Positions 1,449 through 41,627 of a stretch of DNA of 64,000 nt are shown one piece after another (the first letter of the stretch is position 1; every line of letters starts with the position of its first letter). The translations under genes and the position numbers were made by a program. Below the pieces are notes generated by a model. It was not told the origin of the DNA. It worked only from the letters and a program-made list of their open reading frames with translations, and made no database searches. Source of the DNA: a virus; IMG/VR virus record IMGVR_UViG_3300033048_000096; one strand, written 5' to 3'.

Positions 1449-1616
1449 TTATCGCTTAGCTTCTTCGGAGGCTTTTTTTTTGTTTTTATTTTTGATTGAC
1501 GCGGCGATTTCGAGGTATAGATCCATTGCCCTCCCCTCTATTTGCGTCGCCAATTCATGCTCACCATCGTCGTTAAGGGCCTCTGCGAGCCTGTGGAGGT
1601 GTTTCAGAGCCTTCAT
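1449..1616 (-). CDS. 55-aa protein carrying the shared leader motif (absent from ORF track)
   Basis: Manual translation MKALKHLHRLAEALNDDGEHELATQIEGRAMDLYLEIAASIKNKNKKKASEEAKR*; ATG overlaps the TGA of 1613..2464 (ATGA coupling). Confidence 0.65.
   Translation of the reverse strand: MKALKHLHRLAEALNDDGEHELATQIEGRAMDLYLEIAASIKNKNKKKASEEAKR
1459..1481 (+). terminator. Intrinsic terminator for 582..1364
   Basis: GCTTC-TTCG-GAGGC hairpin (cUUCGg tetraloop) followed by 9 T. Confidence 0.7.
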
Positions 1617-2464
1617 TGGGGTGTAGAGAACCTAACGACGTTGTCGGGCTGAGAAGGCGGCTGTGGGTCTTCTTTCGGCATTTCGAGTGTTTTGTGCGAG
1701 GTGTCAAAGCTTTTGACTAGATTTTGCGCTTCTATTTTTGCTGTATCAAGATTCATGTACATGCCATTCGCGACTCTCTCTACAAATCCTAACAAGAGAT
1801 AGAACTGATTATCTTTGTAGAATGGATCTTCCAGGTCTTCTAATTCTTCATTGGATGGTTCTTCGTAGTCACTATCATCAATCGGAGGCATATCCATGTC
1901 ATCAAACATATCATCAAAATCTCCGGGCTCCGCCATTTTTTTCAATATATTGGTAAAGTAATCGGCTTGGAGATGCATTCCTTTTTCGTCAAGCATATCA
2001 GCGAGCTTAGTTATGTCATTAATCATGCTAGCTTCGGGAGTTATAAAGTTTCCTGTATCAAACCTAGATGGATCTTCCATGCCTTGTTCGGCTCCCTGCA
2101 TGAGGACCTTTGATAATTGTTCGATTATGCTTTGTTGATCGAGTTCTGTTTTAACCTCTCTCTCTTGCATTTGATTAAGCTCAAGCATCATTTTCTTTAT
2201 ATCTTCTGGATATCCGCCATCCATATATTCATCAGCGACGATTAGATCATCGCCCTCCAAGCCTTCGAAAGCCTCAGTTTCTGTCAGGGTATAGGGATCG
2301 ATTCCTTCTTCAGCGAGCCATCCCTCCTCTTTTAGCAGGTCTTCGGGAGATGGTTCTTTACCTTCCTGGGCGTATTTCATGATAAAGTTGTCTAACCTAT
2401 CCGCCTTGTTAACCTTTCCTTCTTTATCAAGTCTTGTGGCTATCTTTATAAGTGCTTTAATCAT
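1613..2464 (-). CDS. Acidic protein with two copies of the shared leader motif
   Basis: LIKIATRLDKEGKVNKADRLDNFI (aa 5-28) and ITKLADMLDEKGMHLQADYFTNIL (aa 151-174), each followed by D/E-rich tracts. Confidence 0.8.
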   Translation of the reverse strand: MIKALIKIATRLDKEGKVNKADRLDNFIMKYAQEGKEPSPEDLLKEEGWLAEEGIDPYTLTETEAFEGLEGDDLIVADEYMDGGYPEDIKKMMLELNQMQEREVKTELDQQSIIEQLSKVLMQGAEQGMEDPSRFDTGNFITPEASMINDITKLADMLDEKGMHLQADYFTNILKKMAEPGDFDDMFDDMDMPPIDDSDYEEPSNEELEDLEDPFYKDNQFYLLLGFVERVANGMYMNLDTAKIEAQNLVKSFDTSHKTLEMPKEDPQPPSQPDNVVRFSTPQ

Positions 2465-2485
2465 CTCAAAATCCTCTAATTTTAT

Positions 2486-3652
2486 CTATTTTCTAACTGT
2501 ATATAAACCTACGTCTATAATTTTTAAATTACCATCTTTATCTTGCATAATGTTATTATTATGAACGTCTGACCAAGAGATTTCAAAATTTTTATATAGA
2601 GAATCTAACATTTTAAATAACCCGGATGTTTCGGGCTGTTCTTGCCAGAATTTGGAGTCAGCTTCATCACCCGGCCTATATTTATCGTGATAATACATTT
2701 TGTATCTATCTCTGGGGAATGAGTATTTATTAGAGTACTTTTTAATAACAAAACTAATGAGATCATAAAAGTATTCTTCTGCGGTATCAAAATATAAATT
2801 TTCATTTCCACTTTCTTTGTTATATATTTCTTCTACCTTGTTTATGCTGGCAAAATAATGTGACATCACTTTTGTTATTTTATTGAATCCATCATAATTT
2901 AGGCGTTCTATTGCCATAATTTCTTTCATTATATCATTTGCTGTGATATCCTTAAATGACTCTCTAAACATAGCAATTTTCGATATAATTTTGCTTATAT
3001 CTTTTGATAATCTAAACACATATTGATCATCCTTAAGAAGGTTTGTTTCCTTTCTTGCATTATAGAATTCCTGTTGACCACTTCCATTTAAAATTTCAAG
3101 CATTTCCGGAGATAATGGCTCAAGCCTTTCCATTATGACTATTTGATATTCGTTCCCTTCTTCGGTCCCTCCCTTTTTAAGTTCGTATATATCAGGTATA
3201 TGTTTGCTTAGCTCTGGGGGCATGGCATCTTTTGCTTTAAGTATTTCGATCCAATTTTCCACTTCTTGGTCATCAGGCATTTCGTGATCATTTATGACAA
3301 CCTTCGCGACAGCATCAGTTCCTTTATATATTCCCGCGAATACAATTCCGTAAGCACCTTGCCCGATATATGCATAATCGGATGAACCGAAAGCATGAGG
3401 TTCAAAACCATTTTCTCTCAATAGGTCTTCGGCCCTCTTTTCTTTTTTAGGTTTTCCGCTCTTTGGATCCACATCTTTGTCAGATATATTTTCGTCGAAG
3501 TATTCTTCTTCGGATATTTGCTTATCTCCAAATTCCTTTACGGCTTCTTCGTGCCAAGGCTCTTCGTACTCAGATAATTCATCGACAATTTGAGAGAATT
3601 TAATATAGCCATTTGTCCTTAGCCAATATGATAAGGATATTAGTTCATTCAT
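2486..3652 (-). CDS. Protein-kinase-like fold enzyme with divergent leader motif
   Basis: Gly loop IGQGAYGIVF, VAKVV lysine, hinge IMERL, catalytic loop SDVHNNNIM, IIDVG in place of DFG. Confidence 0.85.
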   Translation of the reverse strand: MNELISLSYWLRTNGYIKFSQIVDELSEYEEPWHEEAVKEFGDKQISEEEYFDENISDKDVDPKSGKPKKEKRAEDLLRENGFEPHAFGSSDYAYIGQGAYGIVFAGIYKGTDAVAKVVINDHEMPDDQEVENWIEILKAKDAMPPELSKHIPDIYELKKGGTEEGNEYQIVIMERLEPLSPEMLEILNGSGQQEFYNARKETNLLKDDQYVFRLSKDISKIISKIAMFRESFKDITANDIMKEIMAIERLNYDGFNKITKVMSHYFASINKVEEIYNKESGNENLYFDTAEEYFYDLISFVIKKYSNKYSFPRDRYKMYYHDKYRPGDEADSKFWQEQPETSGLFKMLDSLYKNFEISWSDVHNNNIMQDKDGNLKIIDVGLYTVRK

Positions 3653-4350
3653 TATTTAACTCTTTGATAATTCTTTATTCTTTTTCTTACATTTCGCCAG
3701 TCAATATTACCAAGAAACCACTCTACGTATTCTTCCTTGTCTAATCCGAAGTCATTTAAATAAGCATGCTCCCACATATCCAAAGCTAATACCGGAATTG
3801 CTCCTACGATTACATGTTGGTCATGCAGATCAATAGCATTTAAATATAGCTTTTTAGTTATCGTGCAGAAGTTTAAAACAATCCAACCCGATCGGGATAC
3901 ATTAGCTACCCGTTTTATTTCTGTCAGGAAATGGCTTCCACTATATAACTCCTTAAGAATTGCTTTCATTTGAGTGTCTTTATCTAATGAGAATGGTTTA
4001 CTATTTATTACATCCTCAATATACATATTATGAAGACGAACGGAATTAGTATTATAAGCATAATTTGCGCTTATCTCACGAAGCTTACCCATGTTTGGGG
4101 AATCTTTTTCGTTGTTTGATAGCATAGCCTTCTTCCACTCGCCCTCAAAATGCTTAGCAGCCTTCTCATAGCCCCCCAGAAGCTCAAGATGCCTCTCGAC
4201 CGACACTAGCTTAAGGCCGCACTTGTGAACGCCCTGCTTGGCCGTCTTAGATAAGCTATGAGCGATCCGATCTATCTCGTCAGCTTGCTTTGGCAATCCA
4301 AGCTTATCTATTTTGTCTGATATATCAAGTAAGTCGCTTATGTTAGACAT
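3652..4350 (-). CDS. Fe/Mn superoxide dismutase family protein with N-terminal leader motif
   Basis: Signature DMWEHAY, SGW, candidate His ligands in ERHLEL and NSVRLHNMY. Confidence 0.85.
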   Translation of the reverse strand: MSNISDLLDISDKIDKLGLPKQADEIDRIAHSLSKTAKQGVHKCGLKLVSVERHLELLGGYEKAAKHFEGEWKKAMLSNNEKDSPNMGKLREISANYAYNTNSVRLHNMYIEDVINSKPFSLDKDTQMKAILKELYSGSHFLTEIKRVANVSRSGWIVLNFCTITKKLYLNAIDLHDQHVIVGAIPVLALDMWEHAYLNDFGLDKEEYVEWFLGNIDWRNVRKRIKNYQRVK

Positions 4351-4393
4351 ATTTATTTATCCTCTTATGTATATTTATATGAAAATTAGCATA

Positions 4394-4753
4394 TTAATCT
4401 TTGAGAATTCTTCTCTTTTTCATCCATTTCTTTGCGGTCTTGAGAACTTTATTATGAAAATTAATATTAACGCCAGAAGACATCATTTCCGCAAATAGCT
4501 TTGGGCCATCAACCGAAGAAGCTTTCTTATAATCGCTTCTTAATTTTTTAAGCTTGTTCTCTTCTTCATGACATCTTTTTACAGATTCTTTATATAAGTC
4601 TTTAATTTGCTCAGAAATCGAAACCCATTCTCTTTGTGCCAACCGCTTATCATCGGCTGTTATCATTTTTGACCACCGATCATCAAGAATTAAAAAAATT
4701 CTCCTTGTTTCTGACCAACTTCTTGGGTACACTATAGATATGCGATTATGCAT
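4394..4753 (-). CDS. Hypothetical protein
   Basis: 119-aa ORF with GAGGTG RBS, fits operon packing. Confidence 0.65.
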   Translation of the reverse strand: MHNRISIVYPRSWSETRRIFLILDDRWSKMITADDKRLAQREWVSISEQIKDLYKESVKRCHEEENKLKKLRSDYKKASSVDGPKLFAEMMSSGVNINFHNKVLKTAKKWMKKRRILKD

Positions 4754-4818
4754 ACTTCACCTCTTTATTAATTTACTTAGTTGATATAGGTAATTAAACC
4801 CATTAAAGGAATATATTC

Positions 4819-5316
4819 ATGCTAGACCAGCACATAATAAGAGATTTTAGTCAAAACACTTATACCAAAGAAGAATTTTTAAATCAATTAAAAAATTATG
4901 ATGAGCAAGGATATAACCTGTACATAGGAACTGACTCTCAAATAGTTAAAAGAAAAATATCAATCGTTACCGCTATGTGCTTTCATAAGTCAGGAGATGA
5001 TGCGGGGGATGATGCAGGTGGTGTAAGCGGTAAGATATTTTATGTAAAGGAACGCATAGGCAGGAAACAATATCCTAACTTAAGAACGAGAATGCTTCTT
5101 GAAGCATATAGAAGCATCGAACTGGCCATGGAACTTGAAAGCCTTTTCTCGAAAAAACTCGAAGTCCATCTTGATGTTGGCAACACAATAAAGTCAAAAA
5201 CATCTGCTTATGAAAAAGAACTTCAAGCTTTAGTGCTTAGTCAAGGATATGGATGCGAAATAAAACCATATAGTTGGGCCAGCTCTTCTGTCGCAGATAA
5301 GGTTGTTAAAAGTTAA
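4819..5316 (+). CDS. RNase H-like YkuK (DUF458) family protein
   Basis: LYIGTDSQ, RMLLEAYRS, LEVHLDVG, IKPYSWASSSVADK motifs. Confidence 0.8.
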   Translation: MLDQHIIRDFSQNTYTKEEFLNQLKNYDEQGYNLYIGTDSQIVKRKISIVTAMCFHKSGDDAGDDAGGVSGKIFYVKERIGRKQYPNLRTRMLLEAYRSIELAMELESLFSKKLEVHLDVGNTIKSKTSAYEKELQALVLSQGYGCEIKPYSWASSSVADKVVKS

Positions 5317-6153
5317 ATGCAACCCACAATATATTTCGTCGCCGGAATGCCAAGAAGCGGAAGCACTTTGCTGATGAATCTTTTGGGGCAAAATCCTAAT
5401 CATCATGTGACTCCAACCAGCGGGCTGAACGGTCTAATAAGCGTAGTCAAAAACCAATGGATGAATATTGAACCATTCAAAGCCCAAGGGCTAAGCAATA
5501 TAGAGCCTAGAGTATCCTCCTCGATCAGAGGAATGATGTATGGGTTTTATGAAAAGGAACTTGGCGCAGGTAAAATAGTATTTGATAAAAACAGGGTTTG
5601 GCCACAACAAATAGAACTACTTGAAGATGCTCTTAATCGAAGAATCAAAGTAATATGCACAGTTAGAGATACCAAAGCTGTAGTCGCGTCATTTGAAAAA
5701 CTTTATAGAAAGTCACCGCTATCAAGGAAAATACCTATGGGCGCAGCTAACCTAGATGCTCAAACGATTAATGGAAGAGCTAATCTCTTGTTAGGAAATG
5801 GCGGAGTTATAGGAAGCGCAATAAATATGATAAGAGATGCTTACGTAAGAGGCTTTGAAGACCGCTTAATTATAATTCCATATCAAGACCTTGTGTCAAA
5901 ACCCCTGGTAGTTGTTAACGAAATACATGCGTCATTAAATATTCCTAAATTCAAATATGACCCCGATAATGTTACTCAAATAACAAAAGAAGACGATATC
6001 CTATATGGATGGGGAAATGACTTGCATACTATAAGACCCAAGATAGAAACGCCTAAAGAAAATCCATGGATTAATATATTGCCAAGAGATCTTTGTGAGC
6101 GTATAAATATTGAATTTGCAGATATTAATAACCTATCTAAACCTAAATTTTAA
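5317..6153 (+). CDS. Sulfotransferase family protein
   Basis: PAPS-binding loop GMPRSGSTLL, DKNR, VRD...VVASFE. Confidence 0.85.
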   Translation: MQPTIYFVAGMPRSGSTLLMNLLGQNPNHHVTPTSGLNGLISVVKNQWMNIEPFKAQGLSNIEPRVSSSIRGMMYGFYEKELGAGKIVFDKNRVWPQQIELLEDALNRRIKVICTVRDTKAVVASFEKLYRKSPLSRKIPMGAANLDAQTINGRANLLLGNGGVIGSAINMIRDAYVRGFEDRLIIIPYQDLVSKPLVVVNEIHASLNIPKFKYDPDNVTQITKEDDILYGWGNDLHTIRPKIETPKENPWINILPRDLCERINIEFADINNLSKPKF

Positions 6154-7805
6154 GTTCCGCTTTCTGAAACATTAAGCATGCAGTCCCAACTGATTGTAGT
6201 TGCGGCTGCCCCAGATACATTAACCTCAAGACTTTCTGTCGCATCATCTGCTGATATAGCCACGGCCCAAGTTGCAGCCCCTAGATCTTGATTTATTAAC
6301 GTAATAGTTACGCCAACTAATGTGGTGTTGCTCGCTCCATCTCTTTTTATCAACCCAGAAACTTCCCATGCCGAAGCAACAACACCTGCCGCGTCATAAG
6401 CGCTAACTATACCCTTAAACCCATAAGCTTTGTTGGCTCTTATTATCAAAGACGCAGCTAACGCTCTTAATGGAGTTATCGCAGTGTTGCTTGTTTGGGC
6501 ATTCAGATGATATATAGCCCACTGAGCGGCACCTTGAGAGGGATTCGTAGTTCTTCCTGACGACCAAGAAATCTGACCAGGAACGGAAGCGATTGATTGC
6601 CTGCCGCCAGCCATGGAATTTGTACCTATCGCGGTAGTGGATGTATTACTACCAAATGACTGAGACTCAGAACCGTATGCTTGAGTTGTATTGCCTATGC
6701 TAATGGAGTTGTCACCAGTAGTTATAGAACTTATGCCGAAGCTAATTGAGTTAGCTCCATTGGCCGATGTATTATTACCTCCAGCCATAGCTTGCGCTCC
6801 CGCAGCGCTTGTAGAGCAAGAAAGACCTAATGATAATGAATTAATTCCCGTAGAAGAACCATTGCTGTTTATCGCCATAGACCTATCTCCTACAGCAGAC
6901 CCGTTAAAGCCCATAACCACGGAGCCCGTTCCTGTAGCGACAGACGAATAACCGTGGGCGAAACTGTAGTTTCCGTAAGCACCGCCTTCAGTTGCGAAAG
7001 CCACGGACCCTATTCCGTCAGCATAACATCTTGTTCCACTATTAGCGATTCCATGAGAAAATGAATAATTTCCATTTGCGTAACTGTAATATCCCGATGA
7101 AATTGAGTAATCACCAGTAGCATTGCTGTATCCAGATGAGAATGATGCAACCCCAGATGATAAACTTTGGCACATGGCCGCTGAGCTAGCTCCCGTAGCT
7201 ATCGATCCACCGCCAGATGCGAAAGAACTTGATCCACTTGCTCGGTTATTCCTACCCCCAGGTATGCAGGAGTAATTTCCGGAAGCTACATTAGTTACTG
7301 AAGAACTAATTTGTTGCAAATCAATTGCACCGAGCCCTCTGGCGTTACCAGTCACCAGGGTTTGTATTGCTCCAACTCCACCTGCTCCGTCTCCAGAACC
7401 ACCTATCAGGATTAGTGGGAACCCATTATTTCCTGAAGCTAACAGAGCATCCTCCCCCTTTATTGTTGTGCCGTCAGACACTTCAATGTTCGTTGCGCCG
7501 GTTATATTTCCCAATATTAATGTGGCAGCCAGATCTCCGCCCCCCGGAACGAAGGATAACTTAGCTAGGCTAACAGAAGCGTCCAATATGTTTGCGCCAT
7601 CTAATTGCCCCGTTGTATGTGCGTCAAGATCTACCTTTTGAGAATGTCCGTCAAGATGCTGCCCGTCATGTATATGCCCAGCAACCAATGGATCCGTAGA
7701 GCTTAGAGTTGCCCCATCTGCAGTGCCGAACAATCCTCCAAACCATGAATTCGCAACATCTTCTGTCAGGATTGTTATATTAGTCTTATATCTAGTTAAA
7801 GGCAT
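6150..7805 (-). CDS. Virion fibre/adhesin-like protein with YadA-head-like Gly/Ser/Ala repeats
   Basis: About 14-aa periodic repeats (ATGDYSISSGYYSY, ANGNYSFSHG, ANGANSISFG); GGAG RBS before ATG 7805. Confidence 0.7.
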   Translation of the reverse strand: MPLTRYKTNITILTEDVANSWFGGLFGTADGATLSSTDPLVAGHIHDGQHLDGHSQKVDLDAHTTGQLDGANILDASVSLAKLSFVPGGGDLAATLILGNITGATNIEVSDGTTIKGEDALLASGNNGFPLILIGGSGDGAGGVGAIQTLVTGNARGLGAIDLQQISSSVTNVASGNYSCIPGGRNNRASGSSSFASGGGSIATGASSAAMCQSLSSGVASFSSGYSNATGDYSISSGYYSYANGNYSFSHGIANSGTRCYADGIGSVAFATEGGAYGNYSFAHGYSSVATGTGSVVMGFNGSAVGDRSMAINSNGSSTGINSLSLGLSCSTSAAGAQAMAGGNNTSANGANSISFGISSITTGDNSISIGNTTQAYGSESQSFGSNTSTTAIGTNSMAGGRQSIASVPGQISWSSGRTTNPSQGAAQWAIYHLNAQTSNTAITPLRALAASLIIRANKAYGFKGIVSAYDAAGVVASAWEVSGLIKRDGASNTTLVGVTITLINQDLGAATWAVAISADDATESLEVNVSGAAATTISWDCMLNVSESGT

Positions 7806-7821
7806 TTTATGGCTCCGAAAT

Positions 7822-7858
7822 AAAAAAGGCCATATCACGGCCGTTCATGATATGGCTT
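7822..7858 (-). terminator. Intrinsic terminator
   Basis: Inverted repeat GCCATATCA...TGATATGGC with T-tract on the minus strand. Confidence 0.65.
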
Positions 7859-7888
7859 AAAAATTAATATATTCTATAGCTATGAATG

Positions 7889-8182
7889 CTAGTTTAATGC
7901 TTGGATCTTTTTAGCAACTCTAAGCAAAATTAAATAACCTATTAGATCAAGCTCCACATCCTCATCCTCATTAACTTCTGACTCTGAATTAGTCGCATTC
8001 TGTATTCTAGATAACTTATCATCAATCCTAACTTTAATCTGCTCAATAGAGTTGCTCGATGAAAATATCCTCTTCGGTTCTATCGCTGAGTTTCCATACT
8101 TCTTATTTTTCTCTATAAGCAAGTCTTTAACTCCGTCGCACTCTTCCTTTATTAAGCTCTGAACTTTATCTAAACTAGTCAA
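7889..8182 (-). CDS. DUF1599 / nucleotide-modification-associated domain 1 protein
   Basis: KNKKYGNS...IKVRIDDKLSRI...DLIGYLILL pattern (MazG-like helical family). Confidence 0.7.
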   Translation of the reverse strand: MTSLDKVQSLIKEECDGVKDLLIEKNKKYGNSAIEPKRIFSSSNSIEQIKVRIDDKLSRIQNATNSESEVNEDEDVELDLIGYLILLRVAKKIQALN

Positions 8183-8597
8183 CCTTGGTTTCCTCCGATA
8201 TAAAAGAGCGGATTATCTTTACCAATTCAGGATTGATGGAACCTCCTCCGACAAATAAATTATCTTTTAACTCATCTATCTTGATCCACTTGAATTCATC
8301 ACTTTCTTTATTTATCTTAACAGTTCCGGAGAACTCATTGGTTATATAAAAGAATATTCTAAGCCTTGGGGTCGTTAGTTCTCCTACATATTTTATGTTA
8401 TCCGAATTTACATCTAAGTCCGCCTCTTCTTTTAACTCTCTGGCTCCAGCAACTTCAGGAGACTCGCCCTCCTCTATGCTTCCTCCGGGAAAATTCCAGA
8501 AGCCAGCACCCCTAGATGTTTTGCTTCTCCTTAGTATTAAGAATTTGTCTTGGTCTACAACTATTACGGTAGATACTCCTTTTAGATTGGTGAACAT
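8175..8597 (-). CDS. NUDIX hydrolase
   Basis: Nudix box GGSIEEGESPEVAGARELKEEADL; GAGGA RBS before ATG 8597. Confidence 0.9.
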   Translation of the reverse strand: MFTNLKGVSTVIVVDQDKFLILRRSKTSRGAGFWNFPGGSIEEGESPEVAGARELKEEADLDVNSDNIKYVGELTTPRLRIFFYITNEFSGTVKINKESDEFKWIKIDELKDNLFVGGGSINPELVKIIRSFISEETKVD

Positions 8598-8607
8598 AAT
8601 ATCTTCC

Positions 8608-8862
8608 TCATAATGATTCCACATTTATAACTATTAAATCCTTTTCTTTAAGAATTTTTCTTAACTTTCTTTCTATAAACTTCAAAGTAAATGTAAAACT
8701 TGACGGGCAACCAACGCATTGGCCATGAAACTCTAATATAACTTGGATGGGCGGACCATCTTCTACTCCGGCTAGTACTACGAAGCCTTGGTGACTAGAT
8801 AATATACCGTTAATATCATCTTCAATTATCGATTCTATTTTAGAGAAAGTCATTTGAGACAT
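8608..8862 (-). CDS. NifU/NfuA C-terminal domain protein
   Basis: LSSHQGFV...FHGQCVGCPSS...TLKFIERKL matches the NifU-C CxxC motif. Confidence 0.8.
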   Translation of the reverse strand: MSQMTFSKIESIIEDDINGILSSHQGFVVLAGVEDGPPIQVILEFHGQCVGCPSSFTFTLKFIERKLRKILKEKDLIVINVESL

Positions 8863-9412
8863 TTTCAGAAACCTTTTCTTGTGTAAATATTTCAAATAAT
8901 GATCTTGATTCCTGACGCAACTCATCTAAATTTAACTTTTTAGCCCAAGAATTAATTATCTTTACACCCTCTGACTCAAGTGTGTAGTTTACCGCCTCAA
9001 CCTCTATGACACTACGACCGTCTGACAAGGTGTAGTATGATACGTCACAGTCCTCGAAGTTCCATATCCAAGCTTCCTTAAACACAGAGAATTGCTTTAT
9101 ATATCCGCTTAAGCTTAAAAACTCAACTATGGATGAGTCATCATTGTTAGTTAAATTAAGATTTATTTCTTTTCTAACTACATTCCCCGCCCTCTTAACC
9201 TTAAGTGTAAGCTCTGTATTTCCTCCGCCCTTTCTATAACGAAGAAATGATCCATCCTTCTCTCCTGTGAAATAATCATCACAAGAGCATACATAAATAG
9301 GCTCTATCGTTTTTCCAATTAGACTTTCGACTCTAGAATGAAATGTCTTTTTCGATAACCTTCCGGCCCAATATTTATACTCTATTTCGATATTCTGTTC
9401 AATTTTATCCAT
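8840..9412 (-). CDS. CYTH (triphosphate tunnel metalloenzyme) domain protein
   Basis: ExExK motif EIEYK, LRYR, LTLK, RKEIN, IEVE. Confidence 0.8.
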   Translation of the reverse strand: MDKIEQNIEIEYKYWAGRLSKKTFHSRVESLIGKTIEPIYVCSCDDYFTGEKDGSFLRYRKGGGNTELTLKVKRAGNVVRKEINLNLTNNDDSSIVEFLSLSGYIKQFSVFKEAWIWNFEDCDVSYYTLSDGRSVIEVEAVNYTLESEGVKIINSWAKKLNLDELRQESRSLFEIFTQEKVSENVSNDFL

Positions 9413-9488
9413 TTATTTTCCTATGTGCTTAATAATTTTCATTTGCGAAATTCACTCAGATTCCTTCACACCCTCCAAAAAGGCAGTC

Positions 9489-11723
9489 TTATTTGTCTAT
9501 ATATTTGCATTTTGGGTAATTAAGACAGGAAACGAATACACCGAAACGCCCCTTTCGCTCCGCCAAATCTCCATCTTTACATTGCGGACATTTTTTGCCA
9601 GTTTTCTTAGGTTGGGCCTTTTTAGACTTAGGCTTGCTAGCAACAATATTCCCGTTAGCATCTAGGTTTAGAACTGTTTTGCATTTTGGGTAGCGATCAC
9701 AGCCCAAAAATGGACCGTACCGCCCCTTCCTTTTTATCATTTTCCCATCTTTGCAGTTAGGGCATTTATGTTTAGTAACTTCAGGCTTGGCTTTTTCAAT
9801 TATGTTTCCCGAAGAGTCCAGGTTCCCGGTCCACTTACACGTCGGGTAGGAACTACATCCCAGCCACTTACCCCATTTCCCATCACGCTCGGTTAGTTTA
9901 TTTCCGCAATCAGGGCAAGGATGACCGGTTTCAACTGTTGACTCCCTCGCGTTACCATCCTCATCAATGGACACTGCGTATCCGCATTTTGGCCAACTCT
10001 CACAGCCCATGAATACGCCCTTGGAGCTTATCTTTCTTATTAGCTTATGCTTTGACTTGCAATCTGGGCAATCGATATCTGTTTTGAATAAATCCTTTCG
10101 CTTATCTCTAGCGGCTATATCAATTGACTTAACTAATCCGTTATAAAATTTATCTAACACAAAATTCATTTTAGCTTTGCCATTTGATATATCATCAAGC
10201 TCTAGCTCCATATTTGCTGTAAAATTAGGACTAGTTAGATCAGCGAAATGGCGCTCAAGATACTCGCAAGCCATTATGCCGATATCAGTAGCCTTAAGAG
10301 CCTTCTTGCTTCTGACCGCATATTTTCTTTTTAACAAAGTCTCTATCGTGGCAGCGAATGTCGCCGGCCTACCAATTCCTTCTTTCTCCATTTTTTCGGT
10401 AAATGCAGGCTCAGTATATCTAGCTGGCGGCTTGGTAAAATGTTGTGAGGGAATCACCTTCTTTAAGGGAACGGTCTGACCAACCTTCATGGCAGGTAAG
10501 CTAACATTTTTAGTCGATGAACCATAAACCTTAAGGAATCCATCAAATTGCATGACGGAACCCGAGGCTCTAAATTCATAAGTTTTCTTACCCGCGTACT
10601 CAAGCTTTATAGATGCTTGATCAAACAAGGCGGAAGACATCTGCGATGCCATGAATCTATCCTTAATAAGATCTAGCAATCGAGTTTGATCAGGAGTTAG
10701 CGTCATAGGTGTAGGCTCATACGTAGGTCTTATGGCTTCATGAGCATCCTGCGAAGCAGCTTTGGGACCATACTTATTTATGGTTGGAGATAAATACTTT
10801 TTTCCATGTTGTTTCTCGATCATATCTCTTAATTCAATTATTTTACCGGGCTCCGTCCTCGTGGAATCTGTTCTGTGGTATGACGTTAATCCCATGGAAA
10901 ATATACTTTGCGCATTATCCATGACCCTTTTCGATGTCCATCCGAATCTCGTTCCGGCGTCCTTTTGCAATGTGGATGTTTTGTAAGGAGGCTGCGGAGC
11001 ACGCTTACGACTCTTCTTCTTGAATTCGGATACGACCAAGTCGCCGCTAATATCATTGACTATATCATTAGCTTGCTTTTTAGTTTTCGGAATATACTTC
11101 TTACCATTGCACCCGTAAAAGTCTGCATTAAATTTAAGCTTAGTATCCGCGTTAATAGTCCAGTACTCTTCCTTCACAAAGGCCCTTATGGCCTTTTCTC
11201 TATCTACTATGAACTTTAGCGCGGATGATTGCACTCGGCCCGCAGAGGTGCCCTTCAGGCCTTTAGACCACATCAGTGGGCTAACTTTGAACCCGACGAT
11301 CCTATCAGTCATTCTTCTGACTTTTTGGGCATCAAATGCTTTATCGTCAAATGGAACCGGAGACTTAATTCCCGCAATAACATCCTTCTTTGTTATCGTC
11401 TTAAATATAGACCTATATATTTTTTTGCCTTTTTTCGGAAGAACACTCTTTATGTTAAAAGCGATACAATGCCCCTCATTGTCTGCATCGGTAGCTATAT
11501 AAATCTCTTTGTGATTCTTTGACGCAGTTTTTATATTGGCGACGACACCTTTCTTGTCAGAATTTATCTTATAAGTGGGTTGCCAGGTAGATAGATCGAT
11601 CCCCATATCCTTTTTTTCGAGATCCATTATATGCCCTACCGAAGCAATCACTTCATATCCTGACCCTAAGATCTTCCTTATTTTACTGCACTTATTGGGA
11701 CTCTCAACAATTACTAATGCCAT
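9489..11723 (-). CDS. topA: DNA topoisomerase I (type IA) with C-terminal zinc ribbons
   Basis: TOPRIM VIVESPNK, IATDADNEG, SAGRVQS, active-site YHRTDS, AHEAIRPT, GIGRPAT, four C4 ribbons. Confidence 0.95.
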   Translation of the reverse strand: MALVIVESPNKCSKIRKILGSGYEVIASVGHIMDLEKKDMGIDLSTWQPTYKINSDKKGVVANIKTASKNHKEIYIATDADNEGHCIAFNIKSVLPKKGKKIYRSIFKTITKKDVIAGIKSPVPFDDKAFDAQKVRRMTDRIVGFKVSPLMWSKGLKGTSAGRVQSSALKFIVDREKAIRAFVKEEYWTINADTKLKFNADFYGCNGKKYIPKTKKQANDIVNDISGDLVVSEFKKKSRKRAPQPPYKTSTLQKDAGTRFGWTSKRVMDNAQSIFSMGLTSYHRTDSTRTEPGKIIELRDMIEKQHGKKYLSPTINKYGPKAASQDAHEAIRPTYEPTPMTLTPDQTRLLDLIKDRFMASQMSSALFDQASIKLEYAGKKTYEFRASGSVMQFDGFLKVYGSSTKNVSLPAMKVGQTVPLKKVIPSQHFTKPPARYTEPAFTEKMEKEGIGRPATFAATIETLLKRKYAVRSKKALKATDIGIMACEYLERHFADLTSPNFTANMELELDDISNGKAKMNFVLDKFYNGLVKSIDIAARDKRKDLFKTDIDCPDCKSKHKLIRKISSKGVFMGCESWPKCGYAVSIDEDGNARESTVETGHPCPDCGNKLTERDGKWGKWLGCSSYPTCKWTGNLDSSGNIIEKAKPEVTKHKCPNCKDGKMIKRKGRYGPFLGCDRYPKCKTVLNLDANGNIVASKPKSKKAQPKKTGKKCPQCKDGDLAERKGRFGVFVSCLNYPKCKYIDK

Positions 11724-11726
11724 AAG

Positions 11727-12566
11727 CTATTCGTCTCCTATGTTTTTTATTATTTTCTTCATTCGGTCAATCCATTCGTCTAAGTTTTTATTTGACTTCA
11801 TCTGATTGCACGGAAAACAGCATGCCTTTATGTTACTCAATTCATAACCTAAGTTGTTATCAACCCTATCTAATCCTATAGATAGAATTTTATCTCCACA
11901 GTAATGACATGGCTTCCCCCAGAAAGTTATGAACTCATCGATGGTTATTGAAAAACTCAAGTTTCTTTGGTCCGCGCCCTTCTTATATTCCTTATATCTA
12001 AATTCAGGAATATTTCTCATTAATGCTTGTCTGGCATTATTCTTTTTTCTTCTGGATTTTCTATTCTTGGTATCATATTTTAGGGTCTTAACTCTCGTGC
12101 ATTCAAGGCAGTAAACTCCTAACCCGGTATAGGTAGATCTATCTACTGTATATTCCAAACCCTGCTTTAAGATTCCGCAACTAAAGCATATAGAATCCTT
12201 AGCCTTAGCTCTTATCTCCTCATTAGTTAAGCTTGAGTTAACCTCCTTATACCCTCTCTTGGTAACCTTGCTTGTTTTTGTTCTGCAGCTATTGCATTGG
12301 TAAGTTAAATTATCTCTCGAATACTTATCTATGCTAAAGCATTTAGACTCTTTAATTATGTCACAAACCGAACACTTCTTATTAAAGATTAATATTTGAT
12401 CCCGGCTTATCTCTAAACCTTTCTTATAGGCTCTTTTATTTCTTGCCGCTGAATTTTTGCATTCCAAGCAGCTATGAGTGAGCGAATCTTTTGAGCATTT
12501 ATCTTTTCCGAATTCAGAAATATTTTTATTAGCTTTGCAGCTTGCACATTTTTTCAACACACTCAA
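11727..12566 (-). CDS. Zinc-finger HNH-type (homing) endonuclease
   Basis: Three N-terminal CxxC...CxxC repeats; C-terminal CHYCG...GLDRVDNNLGYELSNIKACCFPCNQMK. Confidence 0.75.
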   Translation of the reverse strand: MSVLKKCASCKANKNISEFGKDKCSKDSLTHSCLECKNSAARNKRAYKKGLEISRDQILIFNKKCSVCDIIKESKCFSIDKYSRDNLTYQCNSCRTKTSKVTKRGYKEVNSSLTNEEIRAKAKDSICFSCGILKQGLEYTVDRSTYTGLGVYCLECTRVKTLKYDTKNRKSRRKKNNARQALMRNIPEFRYKEYKKGADQRNLSFSITIDEFITFWGKPCHYCGDKILSIGLDRVDNNLGYELSNIKACCFPCNQMKSNKNLDEWIDRMKKIIKNIGDE

Positions 12567-12572
12567 ATCCCC

Positions 12573-12609
12573 AAAAAAAATACCACGCAGAGCCTGAGCC
12601 CTGCATGGT
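12573..12609 (-). terminator. Intrinsic terminator overlapping a promoter start region
   Basis: ACCATGCAG...CTGCGTGGT stem then 8 T on the minus strand. Confidence 0.6.
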
Positions 12610-12612
12610 TAT

Positions 12613-12641
12613 ATTATACCAAGCGCTTAATAATTCGACAA
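12613..12641 (-). promoter_or_regulatory. Sigma70-like promoter for the HNH-topA operon
   Basis: TTGTCG-17 nt-TATAAT with extended -10 TG. Confidence 0.65.
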
Positions 12642-12655
12642 TTAAATCTATTCAG

Positions 12656-12901
12656 TTATTGTAAGCTGTCTTGCAAGGACATTAATACGTCCTCCAGCAA
12701 CATTCTCTCGTCTTCGGGTATCTCTATCTCTATCTCTTGGGGCTCTTGATCGTCAGCACGAACTAAAATCCTCTTAACGCTTGATACCCAGTTCGCTTCG
12801 TCATTAATGAATTCATCTATTATATCCGCTGATACAGAATCACCGAGCTTATCAAAATGGTCAGCAAGCTTAGCCATCTTTAACATTAATTTTTTATTCA
12901 T
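12656..12901 (-). CDS. Small acidic protein with the shared leader motif
   Basis: MAKLADHFDKLGDSVSADIIDEFI aligns without gaps to the motif in the 1.4-4.4 kb genes; GAGG RBS. Confidence 0.8.
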   Translation of the reverse strand: MNKKLMLKMAKLADHFDKLGDSVSADIIDEFINDEANWVSSVKRILVRADDQEPQEIEIEIPEDERMLLEDVLMSLQDSLQ

Positions 12902-24409: not shown

Positions 24410-26202
24410 CTATTCGAACTCAACTACACAGCTATCACCATCACAAAATTTAGTCCCAGAGCCAGCGACTTCCGTCTCAAATTTATGTATTGGGGTTATT
24501 AAGGCTATCATCTCATTATACTCTTTCTCTGTAATAGGTTCATAAGGGGCTTGTACATATCCCGTCTCTTCGTATCTCAAGAAACTGACAGCCTTAAGTT
24601 TAGACTCATACATCTCAAGAGCCGTTTTGATATGCTTACCTTCTTCTGGGTGGAATGTTACTGTTATACTGACACTGTTATCCGCCCAATAATATTGCAT
24701 ATCCGCTGCCAATTGTAATTGCTCCCACATACTTACATCCCTTTTTCCTCTCTCAAAGAAAGGCTCTTTCACTGGGAATGAAGCAATTATAGTGTTCGGG
24801 CTAGATACGCACGGCTCAGTATGGTATCCAGCCTTACGCAATGTTGGAAGCATATCATTTTGCTTTGAGAATCTAATTCTTCTTATGTAATATTCATCTT
24901 CCGGGAAATGAATTCCTGGAGTGCTACCATTTAGAAGACTTACCGTACCGCTAGGCTTAATCGTGGTAGTTCTTTTACTTCTGGGGACACATAGCCAATC
25001 ACTATAAGTATGATCTAATTTTTGAATGAAATTATAAGAAGAATCACACCAATTCATAAACTCTCTGTAACCAAACTTATTGATCGCCTGACGAACACCA
25101 GAAATTCCGGTGCCTATTCTTCTGTTCTTTTGCATCTTCCCATTTGTCTCGGCCCAATGAGTTCTCGTTAGAGTTACCGTCTTACCATATAGATATGCTA
25201 TCTTAACTGTCTTCAGGTAGTCTTCTAAGCTCTCATGCTTCGCTGGGAATGTCTCGGGCACGTTACATAACTCTCGGCTCTCTAGCTGCATCTCAACGCA
25301 AGGATTGAATCCCTCCACGGAAAGATCATCATCTCTTGCGGGATCTTTCATCCTTCCGTAATTTCTGGCATTTTCCAACCAGATATATCCGGGCTCACCA
25401 TTCTTTATGGTTAGTTTTGCATATTTATCATAATTCATCCCAATCTCAGCGTTAAAGCTATTATTGCTTCCCCATCTATGATGTCGTAATGGGTGATTCT
25501 CTATCTCTACCTCAAGAAGCTTAGCCTCTTCGCTCCCAGAATCAAGTGACTTTAAACGCTCAATCAATTCGTTAAGCTTATCGGGATTTTTCATATTTAA
25601 GTAATCAATGTCATCTTTGTTTCCGAGAGATAAAGCTGCGCTTCTTCTTACGTTTCCAGCAACGACACATCTGCCAATTAAATTTTCTGTATCTACAATG
25701 TCAGTACCTGATATTAATAATCCTATTCTTTCTGTATAAAACGAAGTCAATGTTTCGTGCAGTTCCTTAAGTGGGCCCGAACCGCTGCTCGTTCCTCCGA
25801 AACCATTTATAGGCTCCCCATAAGCTCTAATTCCGGAATAATCAAATTCAGGTATTCCACCTCCGTAAAAAAATCCATCCAATAAGACCCTAACACTTTC
25901 TACCCAAGCCTCTCTTGTGTCAGCAATCACACATAACTGAGACTTACCCTCTCTTGTTGTGTATTCGTTTTCGTGCGCAAAATTAAGCCTACAATTTGAA
26001 ATAACAGAACCCGGCTCTTTTACCGTAAGAGATTTCGCTCCTTTTGTATCAAAACCCACTCCTACACCTAGCATTAACGCGTCCATTATCCACGCGAATA
26101 TTTCCGATCCTCTATTGTCCAAGTCTTTTGTTGATATAAAACCACAGTTAAATAATCCAGCCGCAGTTCTCTCCTCAACGAATTTTGTGCCCATCATCCA
26201 TA
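24410..26202 (-). CDS. nrdJ: Class II (B12-dependent) ribonucleotide reductase, exon 2
   Basis: FNCGF, GVGVGF, VVAGNVRRSA, NPCVE, ELCN, TIKPSGTVS, C-terminal CDGDSC. Confidence 0.92.
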
Positions 26203-27225
26203 CCAATGGGACTTTCTATATGCCTTTCGACATATAACGGACTATACCTTCTCGCGATTAAACCAACGAGGAACGATTATAGTCTCTGAACCTTAGAATC
26301 TAATTTTGCAATAGTATTATCATGCTTAAATATCTCAAGCACAACTCTATTAGCATAGCATTGACGTTTCTTCTCTATTCTATTCTTATACTCAGCTGTA
26401 TTTATACCGAAATATTCGATGTATAAATTTTTCTCAGGTAAATAGAAATCAAAAGTATAATCAGAATTTCCGTAAGGAACTTCTTTTTCAAATAAAATAT
26501 TACGTTCTCTTAGGTAGCGCCCGATCAAATACTCTTGTCTAGAAAGATATGTGATTCCATCATGCACATACACGCGGCCGTAGCCATGCTTGGTATGATG
26601 AAAATATTTAATTCCTTTTAGATTTACATATTTATAAATCTGAGACCATCTAGATATATTAAATCTATGCGTATATACTTCCCAGTGAGGATAGTCTGGT
26701 GACTTTCCATCAAATTCTTCCCTAAGTGGTAAAACCTGATATATGCGCACATGCTTTTCTACAAGCTTTATTAATTCATCATTAGACAGATGATTATGAA
26801 ATCGTTTATTGGTAATTCCAAAAACTTCTCTCATTGCGTTATTCCACGTTCCGTAATACTTCTGCGCCCTTGCTGTAAGAGCTTCGTCATCACTTGCTTT
26901 CGGCAATCTTCTTAGTTGTTTTCGTAAATTCAAAAGAGTGGCTTTAACTCGTCCAGCATTCCATTTGGCCGGAATTAAGATTTTGTTATCATTAAGCCAT
27001 TGTAGTAACTCTCCGGAGCGACCAACTTTTTTATACAACTTTCGTCGTGAAGTAATCACCCCTTGTTCTATCTCTTTTAAAATTTTATCACTAAGCATTA
27101 GTTCCTCTTGGCTGCTGATTGTCCAATCCTAAATCTTATCAAACCTTTCGACTTATGTCGTGTGGTGCTCTAGGCTCTAAGGAGTTTCCAGCAATTTACA
27201 TTCTTTAATGTGGGCTATGAAGTTA
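26203..27225 (-). mobile_element. Group I intron (1023 nt) in nrdJ
   Basis: P AAATTGCTGGAAA (27185-27197), Q AATCAGCAG (27112-27120), R TCAGAGACTA (26280-26289), S AAGGTATAGTCC (26239-26250); P1 with U-G at the 5' splice site; terminal G; splicing restores PPGRGL-WMMG. Confidence 0.92.
26277..27098 (-). CDS. Intron-encoded putative homing endonuclease (PD-(D/E)XK / Vsr-like)
   Basis: C-terminal SRQE...FEKEVPY...FDFYLPEKNLYIEYFG; N-terminal repeats of the YYGTWNNAM type. Confidence 0.75.
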   Translation of the reverse strand: MLSDKILKEIEQGVITSRRKLYKKVGRSGELLQWLNDNKILIPAKWNAGRVKATLLNLRKQLRRLPKASDDEALTARAQKYYGTWNNAMREVFGITNKRFHNHLSNDELIKLVEKHVRIYQVLPLREEFDGKSPDYPHWEVYTHRFNISRWSQIYKYVNLKGIKYFHHTKHGYGRVYVHDGITYLSRQEYLIGRYLRERNILFEKEVPYGNSDYTFDFYLPEKNLYIEYFGINTAEYKNRIEKKRQCYANRVVLEIFKHDNTIAKLDSKVQRL

Positions 27226-40223: not shown

Positions 40224-41627
40224 TTACCTCTTTCTCCTTTTATCAATTAGTGAAGACCTTCTCGAACCACCTTGCAATCTTCCAAACCCCGACTTCTTCT
40301 TCTTAATCTTACGATCAATTTGACTCCTCACACTAGCTATCTTATCCTCTTCTAAATCAAGGGTCATGGCGGAACCTCTACTGCCCTCCTTCGCTGCCGC
40401 AATAGCTGATTGAGCCTTACTCTCTTTCTTGAGATTATCTATGCGATCCTGGGGTAATCCTAAGCCAGCAAACCAACTATAAATCTTAATCGTATCACCC
40501 ATACCTTCCTGAGAATATATTCCTTGGAAAATATTAGCCCCATTCGTCTGATCTGATATGACCGAGAAACAATAATCAATATTTAAAGATGGCATCGAGT
40601 TTAAGGCATGCTCGGAACCAAGGATTATAACCCCACCTGTCCTCGTCTGAGATAGATCAAATCCGTCAGCTAACATGTTGCCACTCAAACTGTCGATAGC
40701 CGCCTCTGCTAATGCGGTCTCCTCCATGTAATCATCAACCTCAACTACGCCGTAAACGGAACAGTCGCCACAAGAAATTATCTTGCCAAAATCACTAGGG
40801 TCCAAAGAAGTGAACCTAGAAGCCTGTGACGTTAAAGTGTTGAATAAATTAATCGGCTCAACAATTGCAGCATTAGCCTGCTTCCAAAACTCAGACTGAC
40901 TAAGCTTACTGTATATCTGCTCTATTCTCGCGTTATCAACAACAACTAAACTAGCTATCATATCATCGGCTGTCATTCGAGCTAATCTAGCTAAAGTTTC
41001 AATAGAATTCTTTTTTGATTGAGCATCCTCAGTAGCCTTGGGGAGAACGTATATAACGCCTACAGGCATCGATGTCCCGTATAGAATCGGAACCATCGTG
41101 TCCACAGATGATGAACCAGAGCCGCCACCACCAGATATAGCAAGAAATAACATGTCATTTCCGTCAGCTACGTCAGAAACAAAACTTCCTAGCTTGTCCT
41201 CGTTGTCTTCGAATATCTCACGACCTAGATCGAGGTCCTTTCCTGTACCACCTAAGCTGCCCTCAAGTAAAAGTTTCTGATGAGGTAACACATCTATAAA
41301 CTTAAGGTCCTGGACAGAAGTGTTTATTACCCCAACATCATATCCCAGTCTGTGGAACTCCTCAGCGATTCTAGATCCAGCTTGACCAACTCCTATAACT
41401 CCTATGTTTATACTAACTTCTCTTTCTGATACTAACTCAGGCATTGACACTCCTCCGCTTGACTTTGCCGCCAGCTTAGCTTTTAACTCCTCTAGCTTAT
41501 TATTATCCATTTTTTTGGTCCCTTTTTCTTCGCCAAATGCGCTCATTAATGCTTTATTTTCATCCCTAATCTTCTCATCATCTTTCTTAACTTTTTGTAT
41601 CTCGCTTTTCTTTATCTCCACGCTCAT
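40224..41627 (-). CDS. Tubulin/FtsZ-superfamily GTPase (PhuZ/TubZ/CetZ-like)
   Basis: IGVGQAGSRIA, INTSVQD, GGTGKD, signature SGGGGSGSS, VVDN, LDPSDF; AAGGAGG RBS. Confidence 0.88.
   Translation of the reverse strand: MSVEIKKSEIQKVKKDDEKIRDENKALMSAFGEEKGTKKMDNNKLEELKAKLAAKSSGGVSMPELVSEREVSINIGVIGVGQAGSRIAEEFHRLGYDVGVINTSVQDLKFIDVLPHQKLLLEGSLGGTGKDLDLGREIFEDNEDKLGSFVSDVADGNDMLFLAISGGGGSGSSSVDTMVPILYGTSMPVGVIYVLPKATEDAQSKKNSIETLARLARMTADDMIASLVVVDNARIEQIYSKLSQSEFWKQANAAIVEPINLFNTLTSQASRFTSLDPSDFGKIISCGDCSVYGVVEVDDYMEETALAEAAIDSLSGNMLADGFDLSQTRTGGVIILGSEHALNSMPSLNIDYCFSVISDQTNGANIFQGIYSQEGMGDTIKIYSWFAGLGLPQDRIDNLKKESKAQSAIAAAKEGSRGSAMTLDLEEDKIASVRSQIDRKIKKKKSGFGRLQGGSRRSSLIDKRRKR

Follow-up and report, generated by a model that had tools for sequence, protein, structure and literature searches.

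A portable helical-hairpin tag on unrelated proteins of uncultured marine jumbo phages and its candidate role in capsid loading

The locus and the segments that share the tag

The stretch of DNA analysed here, which we call the window, comprises 64,000 nt of an uncultured jumbo phage (IMG/VR record IMGVR_UViG_3300033048_000096), and the subject of this report is a short helical module, hereafter the tag, that recurs on otherwise unrelated proteins encoded on its minus strand. An earlier note, made from the sequence alone, had aligned six segments from five proteins and proposed that they form one leader by which diverse cargo is packaged into the virion. A check of open reading frames (ORFs) and residues recovered all six segments and the five minus-strand ORFs at the positions collected in Table 1. 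Four of the genes, encoding a superoxide dismutase (SOD)-like protein, an atypical protein kinase, a very acidic 283-residue protein and a 55-residue ORF, are consecutive and tightly packed, with overlaps of 1 nt and 4 nt and one gap of 21 nt; the fifth encodes an 81-residue protein.

The six segments proved unequal when each protein was left out in turn and the resulting hidden Markov models (HMMs) were scanned over all 838 six-frame ORFs of the window. The left-out 283-residue protein was recovered at rank 1 (E 1e-5), as were the 81-residue protein (E 3e-4) and the SOD-like protein (E 0.02-0.04), whereas the kinase and the 55-residue ORF came in at ranks 73 and 91 (E 70-90). An independent HMM, built from 257 metagenomic copies with zero from the window, matched the same three proteins only (E 1e-23 for the 283-residue protein, 2e-9 for the 81-residue protein and 4e-6 for the third) and placed the kinase 10th (E 10) and the 55-residue ORF 27th, while a residue-shuffled database gave a best E of 0.78. 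Because the leave-one-out and independent HMMs pick the same proteins and the shuffled control gives no comparable E, we regard four segments in three proteins as solid: two in the 283-residue protein and one each in the SOD-like and 81-residue proteins. For these four, chance resemblance of amphipathic helices is refuted by the independent HMM, the shuffled control and the 2,697 matching clusters described below, and we hold it to be most improbable. It applies to the segment of the 55-residue ORF alone, which scores like background (E 69 in leave-one-out) and for which we found no homologs in related genomes, so that this part of the earlier alignment falls away. A Gly is invariant across the six window segments; in the wider logo this residue is fixed by the anchoring of the alignment, and Lys replaces it in one relative's copy.

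The kinase stands between these outcomes. Its kinase domain matches Pkinase at 5.5e-6, under the Pfam cut-off, and its N-terminus forms a helix-turn-helix followed by an acidic linker, an arrangement kept in seven homologous kinases from relatives. A profile of these seven N-termini aligned in register with the motif profile (hhalign probability 73%, P 3e-5), and the segment is without the conserved Asp residues of the tag. Since the N-terminus is conserved among homologs and matches in register, it is probably a divergent copy of the tag. In a 21-kb IMG/VR contig (L001), three tandem atypical-kinase paralogs, each with a variant N-terminal hairpin, follow a tagged SOD gene.

Evaluating the SOD-like carrier further, we found a Pfam Sod_Fe_C match (2e-17) and four residues taken as the metal ligands (H54, H107, D191 and H195) that are invariant in 53 homologs. 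Residues 40-232 of its model superpose on solved Fe/Mn SODs (8bhx_A: Z 20.4, root-mean-square deviation (rmsd) 2.2 A, 184 residues), while residues 1-39 have no counterpart in them. The C-terminal domain, the four ligands and the predicted fold argue for an Fe/Mn SOD. About 49 full-length relatives, at 41-73% identity, lie on contigs of up to 422 kb. Every aligned phage homolog carries the tag, whereas the SOD homologs P0050, P0053 and P0054 are without it; the tag accounts for the difference between the phage SOD and cellular SODs.

Elsewhere the window encodes PrkA, DUF444, SpoVR, PIN-PhoH, class II ribonucleotide reductase, DnaB, topoisomerase IA, glycosyltransferases and a tubulin. The ribonucleotide reductase ORF matches the C-terminal part of its family. 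A further minus-strand gene encodes a 562-residue repetitive protein with no family match, of which the first ~90 residues alone are kept in relatives (50-55% identity); it may be a fibre whose distal part can be exchanged.

Table 1. Coordinates of features in the window (bare positions) and in related genomes (contig:positions)
Feature	Location	Strand	Description
SOD-like protein, 232 residues	3652-4350	minus	Fe/Mn superoxide-dismutase-like; tag on residues 1-38
Tag of SOD-like protein, residues 1-38	4237-4350	minus	Helices at residues 2-16 and 20-38
Atypical protein kinase, 388 residues	2486-3652	minus	Residues 1-27 (3572-3652) a probable divergent tag variant
Very acidic protein, 283 residues	1613-2464	minus	Two tag copies; tag-linker-tag-linker, hub-like architecture
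Tag copy 1 of 283-residue protein, residues 1-32	2369-2464	minus	Initiator Met 15 residues before Gly
Tag copy 2 of 283-residue protein, residues 147-178	1931-2026	minus	Internal; ends KKMA, then acidic tract
55-residue ORF	1449-1616	minus	Aligned segment at residues 7-30, unsupported as a tag copy; gene itself unconfirmed
81-residue protein	12656-12901	minus	Tag, acidic linker and conserved C-terminal helix
Tag of 81-residue protein, residues 5-36	12794-12889	minus	HMM-supported
562-residue protein	6150-7838	minus	Gly/Ser/Ala-rich, repetitive
Ribonucleotide reductase ORF	24410-26206
Tubulin	40224-41627	minus
Tandem atypical-kinase paralogs	L001:10699-13691
Endonuclease VII/HNH-type gene, G003	L107:5839-6708
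Major capsid protein, G003	L107:6867-7880
GIY-YIG-type homing endonuclease, G003	L107:11798-12556
Protease-containing polyprotein, 1165 residues, G003	L107:14011-17508
Row of small tagged genes, G008	L163:903-4743, L162:15000-20000
GroEL gene, G004	L082:4367-5953
PurZ-type gene, G004	L082:11764-12804

Spread, consensus and modelled structure of the module

A 40-column profile of 18 segments, searched against 1.84 billion representative proteins at E<=1e-3, matched 2,697 clusters (50% identity), 85 of them at E<=1e-10 and all of them from metagenomes. Tabulating copy position and architecture for the best 150 of these clusters revealed a copy starting within the first 12 residues in 122, two copies in 98 and three in 16 (together 114 of 150), with acidic disordered linkers between them. 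The commonest architecture, an N-terminal plus an internal copy (54 of 150), is shared by the 283-residue protein of the window, and the second copy often lies at the extreme C-terminus. Tandem copies are spaced 34 residues apart, and many carriers are tiny, holding scarcely more than the tag. The N-terminal placement claimed earlier therefore stands as a strong bias, with C-terminal and internal copies also common.

Searches of annotated collections returned little. Across the carriers and 150 library proteins, Pfam and PHROGs recognised nearly no payload, the few recognised domains were mutually unrelated, and no profile covered the tag itself. A PDB profile search with the module gave no match (best E 0.72), ESM Atlas gave no usable match, and of 77 pattern matches in GTDB species genomes, for which one strict pattern was used, none was confirmed. 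Neither tblastn of two consensus-type tag proteins against 50,697 deposited phage records (no match even at E 10) nor queries of deposited phages with the window DNA and with the 283-residue protein found anything similar, and a literature search for the motif strings found no paper; the module itself appears to be undescribed. IMG/VR queried with the single SOD-like and single 283-residue proteins likewise yielded no relatives, though an alignment-based scan did reach them.

Three related IMG/VR genomes (G002, G003 and G004) were read whole, and a local HMM iterated to convergence settled on 15 distinct segments, with 3-5 carriers per genome. The carriers comprise the SOD-like protein, orthologs of the 81-residue protein (found in L001, G003 and G004), an acidic protein encoded directly after the SOD gene in all three genomes, a 590-/621-residue protein, an HExxH protein and a 350-residue protein. 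The 590-/621-residue carrier has a Gly-rich stretch, weak matches to tail-lysin and tape-measure families and, by eye, a peptidoglycan-binding-like segment. Related genomes hold 3-22 copies each: 22 in G008 (223 kb, 67% complete), 15 in G006 (317 kb), 12 in G007 (233 kb), 7 in G009 (159 kb) and 4 in G010 (132 kb). Seventeen of the 22 copies in G008 start at or just past the start Met and two stand at the very end of the protein, and 12 small tagged genes form one co-directional row at 53-62 kb, adjoined by an anti-restriction-type gene (phrog_7245, 2e-60). The recognisable G008 payloads are a poly(A)/CCA-type nucleotidyltransferase with a C-terminal tag, a protein with an ArdC-N-like domain and a weakly acetyltransferase-like protein. 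Upstream of 17 G008 tagged genes we found no shared promoter, nothing being conserved beyond ribosome-binding sites.

The tubulin of the window is 60-73% identical to those of G002, G003, G004 and G008, its PrkA 69-72%, and the major capsid protein (MCP) of G003 is 82-83% identical to those of G006, G007, G009 and G010; on these identities we place the window and these genomes in one clade of uncultured marine jumbo phages. The window tubulin has no match in PHROGs or deposited phages. G003 is classed as 'provirus' in IMG/VR (332 kb), yet is a 99%-complete jumbo-phage genome; its head genes are collinear with those of G004, which has direct terminal repeats. G004 also encodes a PurZ-type gene (phrog_1211, 1e-66) followed by a DHH phosphoesterase, with a GroEL gene nearby, and the PurZ-type gene hints at 2-aminoadenine DNA in this relative.

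The wider set gave a sharper consensus than the window's, of ~32 residues (MIKELIKLANHLDKKGLTKEADYLDxIIKKMA), which, with the central Gly counted as position 0 in a logo built from 266 copies, reads M-15 I K x L-11 I K L-8 A-7 N/D x L-4 D-3 x K G0 L x K E A+5 D+6 x L+8 D+9 x I I K K x A+16. Among N-terminal copies the frequencies reach 0.92 for L-11, 0.93 for A-7, 0.91 for L-4, 0.96 for A+5 and 0.97 for D+9, and 61% of them have their initiator Met at -15, while 19% have it at -16. Polar positions (D-3, A+5, D+6, D+9, K+3 and E+4) are kept across unrelated carriers, and after +16 there usually follow acidic residues in a disordered-looking, flexible linker. The module is thus real, conserved, terminally biased and joined to many different payloads. 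Its reading as a portable docking tag on many unrelated payloads is well supported: the modular label proposed earlier is borne out by the 2,697 clusters, their N-terminal bias, the diverse or unknown payloads and the up to 22 copies per genome, and the many N-terminal matches on diverse payloads go beyond the HMM scan that the earlier note had proposed as a check.

The predicted helix-Gly-turn-helix agrees with the AlphaFold2 model of the SOD-like protein (53-sequence alignment; mean predicted local distance difference test, pLDDT, 90), in which the two tag helices have pLDDT 79-92. By eye, the hydrophobic faces of the logo (-15, -14, -11, -10, -8, -7, -4; +5, +8, +11, +12, +15/16) are wider than a lone hairpin needs. 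A natural 67-residue protein, P0097, has two copies exactly 34 residues apart, and its AlphaFold model, from a single sequence, consists of four helices (pLDDT 84; predicted template-modelling score, pTM, 0.65). This model is matched best by up-down four-helix bundles (Z 7.7-8.9, rmsd 1.7-1.8 A over 66-67 residues, which is the generic range for helical proteins), among them single-chain ROP (1yo7_B: Z 7.7, rmsd 1.8 A, 67 residues); VIA-align ranks four-helix bundles first, and Foldseek with the two-copy model lists designed tetratricopeptide repeats (TPRs) among its first matches (E 0.6-3). Hairpin-hairpin pairing is plausible on these models, whose structural matches are generic. Two other readings of the motif were rejected: as an EF-hand in its D-x-x-G loop, which lacks conservation at the calcium-ligand positions and for which Pfam's few EF-hand matches are marginal, and as a SAP/HeH-type DNA-binding element, given that the module is acidic and its modelled turn tight.

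Head-module copies and the destination of tagged proteins

A link to the head was examined in the head modules of G003 and G004, where the gene order is TerL, portal, protease polyprotein and then MCP. In G003 the full order is TerL, portal, a 137-residue protein, a 605-residue protein, the 1165-residue protease-containing polyprotein, proteins of 201 and 231 residues, a homing endonuclease, proteins of 125, 867 and 220 residues, and the MCP. The clade MCP matches phrog_2522 and the protease phrog_18299. Using the G003/G004 ortholog pairs, the 137-residue protein adjoining the portal aligned in register and from end to end with the motif profile (hhalign 75%, P 2.6e-5), as did, also in register, the C-terminal end of the 867-residue protein encoded between protease and MCP (hhalign 66%, P 5.5e-5). 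The independent HMM also picked this C-terminus (E 3e-5 within the 20-protein module), and the 201-residue protein gave a weak match (P 0.008). Two endonuclease genes accompany this module in G003: the homing endonuclease, of GIY-YIG type, lies between the protease and 867-residue genes, and an endonuclease VII/HNH-type gene stands just after the capsid gene.

The end of the tag offers a second connection. Position +16 is Ala in 52% of the N-terminal and internal copies, against 15% of those C-terminal copies long enough to include it (Fisher p 2e-4), so that the junction residue accompanies a downstream payload. In the 1165-residue protease polyprotein, the pattern h-x-[KR]-x-A shows an enrichment of about threefold over shuffling (13 observed, 3.9 expected), and it recurs as IVRYA-S at a conserved site, residues 20-25, of the G003 MCP, which the tag ends of the window (IMKYA-Q, LKKMA-E and LSKTA-K) resemble by eye. 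We take h-x-[KR]-x-A as a candidate cut rule of the head protease. Divergent head-module copies, the Ala junction and the K-x-A site of the MCP favour a docking-and-clipping logic like that of the capsid-targeting sequence (CTS) of phage T4, and capsid loading of tagged proteins is the reading that we rank first and tentatively favour, by sequence and by analogy; it is followed by a cytoplasmic tag-tag assembly and then by other destinations.

Capsid loading could work as follows. Genes of the clade would acquire the hairpin at their very start, less often at the end or between domains, and tagging would bring unrelated proteins to one common binding site. The free hydrophobic face of each hairpin may be satisfied by pairing with a second hairpin in a ROP-like four-helix bundle, and the partners may be the divergent hairpins carried by head-assembly proteins whose genes lie between portal, protease and MCP. 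Because such partner hairpins would sit on head-assembly proteins, the SOD-like enzyme, the acidic two-tag protein, the 81-residue protein and probably the kinase would be loaded into the prohead, where the head protease may cut the tag off at the h-x-K-x-A junction. That the hairpin serves the whole clade as a universal cargo-loading tag, paired with head-core hairpins and clipped at h-x-K-x-A, is a bolder proposal, and we consider it possible but rather doubtful.

Several observations weigh against capsid loading. The head-module copies are weak, being significant only in profile-profile comparison or in the 20-protein search, and the majority of tagged genes with a strong consensus are found away from the head module, in arrays close to genes of anti-restriction type, a placement that also fits early cytoplasmic proteins. 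Both tag and linkers are acidic, while those internal proteins of T4 that remain with the DNA are basic (PMC9026906). The four-helix bundle was modelled from a single sequence and its PDB matches are generic, C-terminal and internal copies misfit a simple cleavable N-terminal leader, and the K-x-A pattern could merely reflect the end of an amphipathic helix.

Array placement, acidity and C-terminal or multiple copies fit equally well an account in which the hairpin would be the tag-to-tag module of a cytoplasmic multi-protein assembly or condensate, with multi-tag acidic hubs such as the 283-residue protein, single-tag enzymes as clients and no role in the virion. Two or three copies joined by acidic disordered linkers in 114 of the best 150 matches, the modelled four-helix bundle of tandem copies, tagged-gene arrays away from the head genes and beside anti-restriction-type genes, and the tagged acidic gene that follows the tagged SOD gene in G002, G003 and G004 all speak for such a network. 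It leaves unexplained, however, the divergent head-module copies and the dependence of the Ala junction on a downstream payload, and we know of no such assembly described for phages; on balance we consider it unlikely. Alternatively, the hairpin could address proteins to a non-capsid structure, such as phage tubulin filaments or a replication compartment, seeing that the clade encodes a tubulin conserved in the four relatives tested and that an acidic tag with its linkers could bind a basic surface. Tag and tubulin are linked by co-occurrence in one clade alone, and a search of five relatives, which could miss divergent forms, found no beta-type domain of a multisubunit RNA polymerase; we therefore saw no sign of a phiKZ-type nucleus and lowered this idea, to which we now give little weight. 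A hairpin acting for each carrier by itself, as a ROP-like homo-oligomerising or stabilising extension with no common partner, would suit the four-helix-bundle model of paired hairpins and the fact that Fe/Mn SODs are oligomers anyway. Independent homodimerisation, though, would neither preserve one polar surface on thousands of unrelated carriers nor fix the initiator Met at -15, and many carriers are tiny proteins with little beyond the tag itself, which makes this account improbable as well.

Known targeting systems and what the tag would mean

Capsid loading has its closest precedent in T4, whose propeptides are cut at sites ending in Glu; one review cites LIE-9 (PMC9026906). IPI-III and Alt, internal proteins of T4 that are otherwise unrelated, have in common a short N-terminal CTS that gives them affinity for the prohead core and that the head protease removes, and this label can carry foreign proteins into the head (PMC9026906). 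The likeness lies in how the two are read, as a terminal tag, a junction and a variable payload. T4 propeptides are 10-19 residues long and have no defined fold (PMC9026906), whereas the module is a folded hairpin of 32 residues, beyond that length range, with a possible K-x-A junction, and it also stands at C-termini or internally and in two or three copies per protein; by eye it does not resemble the T4 leader. Neither a Peptidase_S77 protease nor a gp23-type capsid was matched in G002, G003 or G004, a search in which control genomes gave none either.

Encapsulation peptides of bacterial microcompartments and cargo-loading peptides of encapsulins are short amphipathic terminal helices on a poorly conserved linker that send unrelated enzymes into a protein shell; encapsulin shells have the HK97 fold, and their cargo includes oxidative-stress enzymes. 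These are single helices or linear peptides of cellular compartments, whereas the module is a conserved hairpin. The scaffolding protein of phage P22 has a C-terminal helix-turn-helix that binds coat protein in the procapsid interior and has been used to load foreign cargo. That domain is basic, C-terminal and confined to a single protein, while the module is acidic, mostly N-terminal and found on thousands of proteins, with no sequence similarity to any PDB chain.

Two further comparisons concern shape. ROP/Rom dimers resemble the P0097 model in setting two hairpins into an antiparallel four-helix bundle, a generic match (Z below 13) with no sequence relation, and ROP is an RNA-binding plasmid regulator, not a tag. 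TPRs share with the module a helix-turn-helix unit of ~34 residues, the tandem spacing of 34, and, by eye, the coincidence of module positions -11, -8, -7, -4, 0, +5 and +12 with TPR positions 4, 7, 8, 11, 15, 20 and 27. However, position 24 is Asp in the module and not aromatic, module copies are mostly solitary, and tandem copies are modelled as a closed bundle rather than a superhelix; Pfam TPR models gave no match at E<=0.1-1 for the window carriers or small two-copy proteins.

The hairpin is abundant and sharply conserved, yet without an entry in Pfam, PHROGs or the PDB. A large part of the unannotated proteins in a cosmopolitan, uncultured group of giant phages bears it, and thousands of unrelated ORFs can thereby be grouped by a putative common destination. 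If that destination is the capsid, the proteins that these ungrowable phages package and inject would become predictable from sequence, a set that would include superoxide dismutase, a kinase, an ArdC-like protein, a CCA/poly(A)-type nucleotidyltransferase and hundreds of small acidic proteins, and the tag, compact and folded, would be a possible tool for bringing foreign proteins into large capsids.

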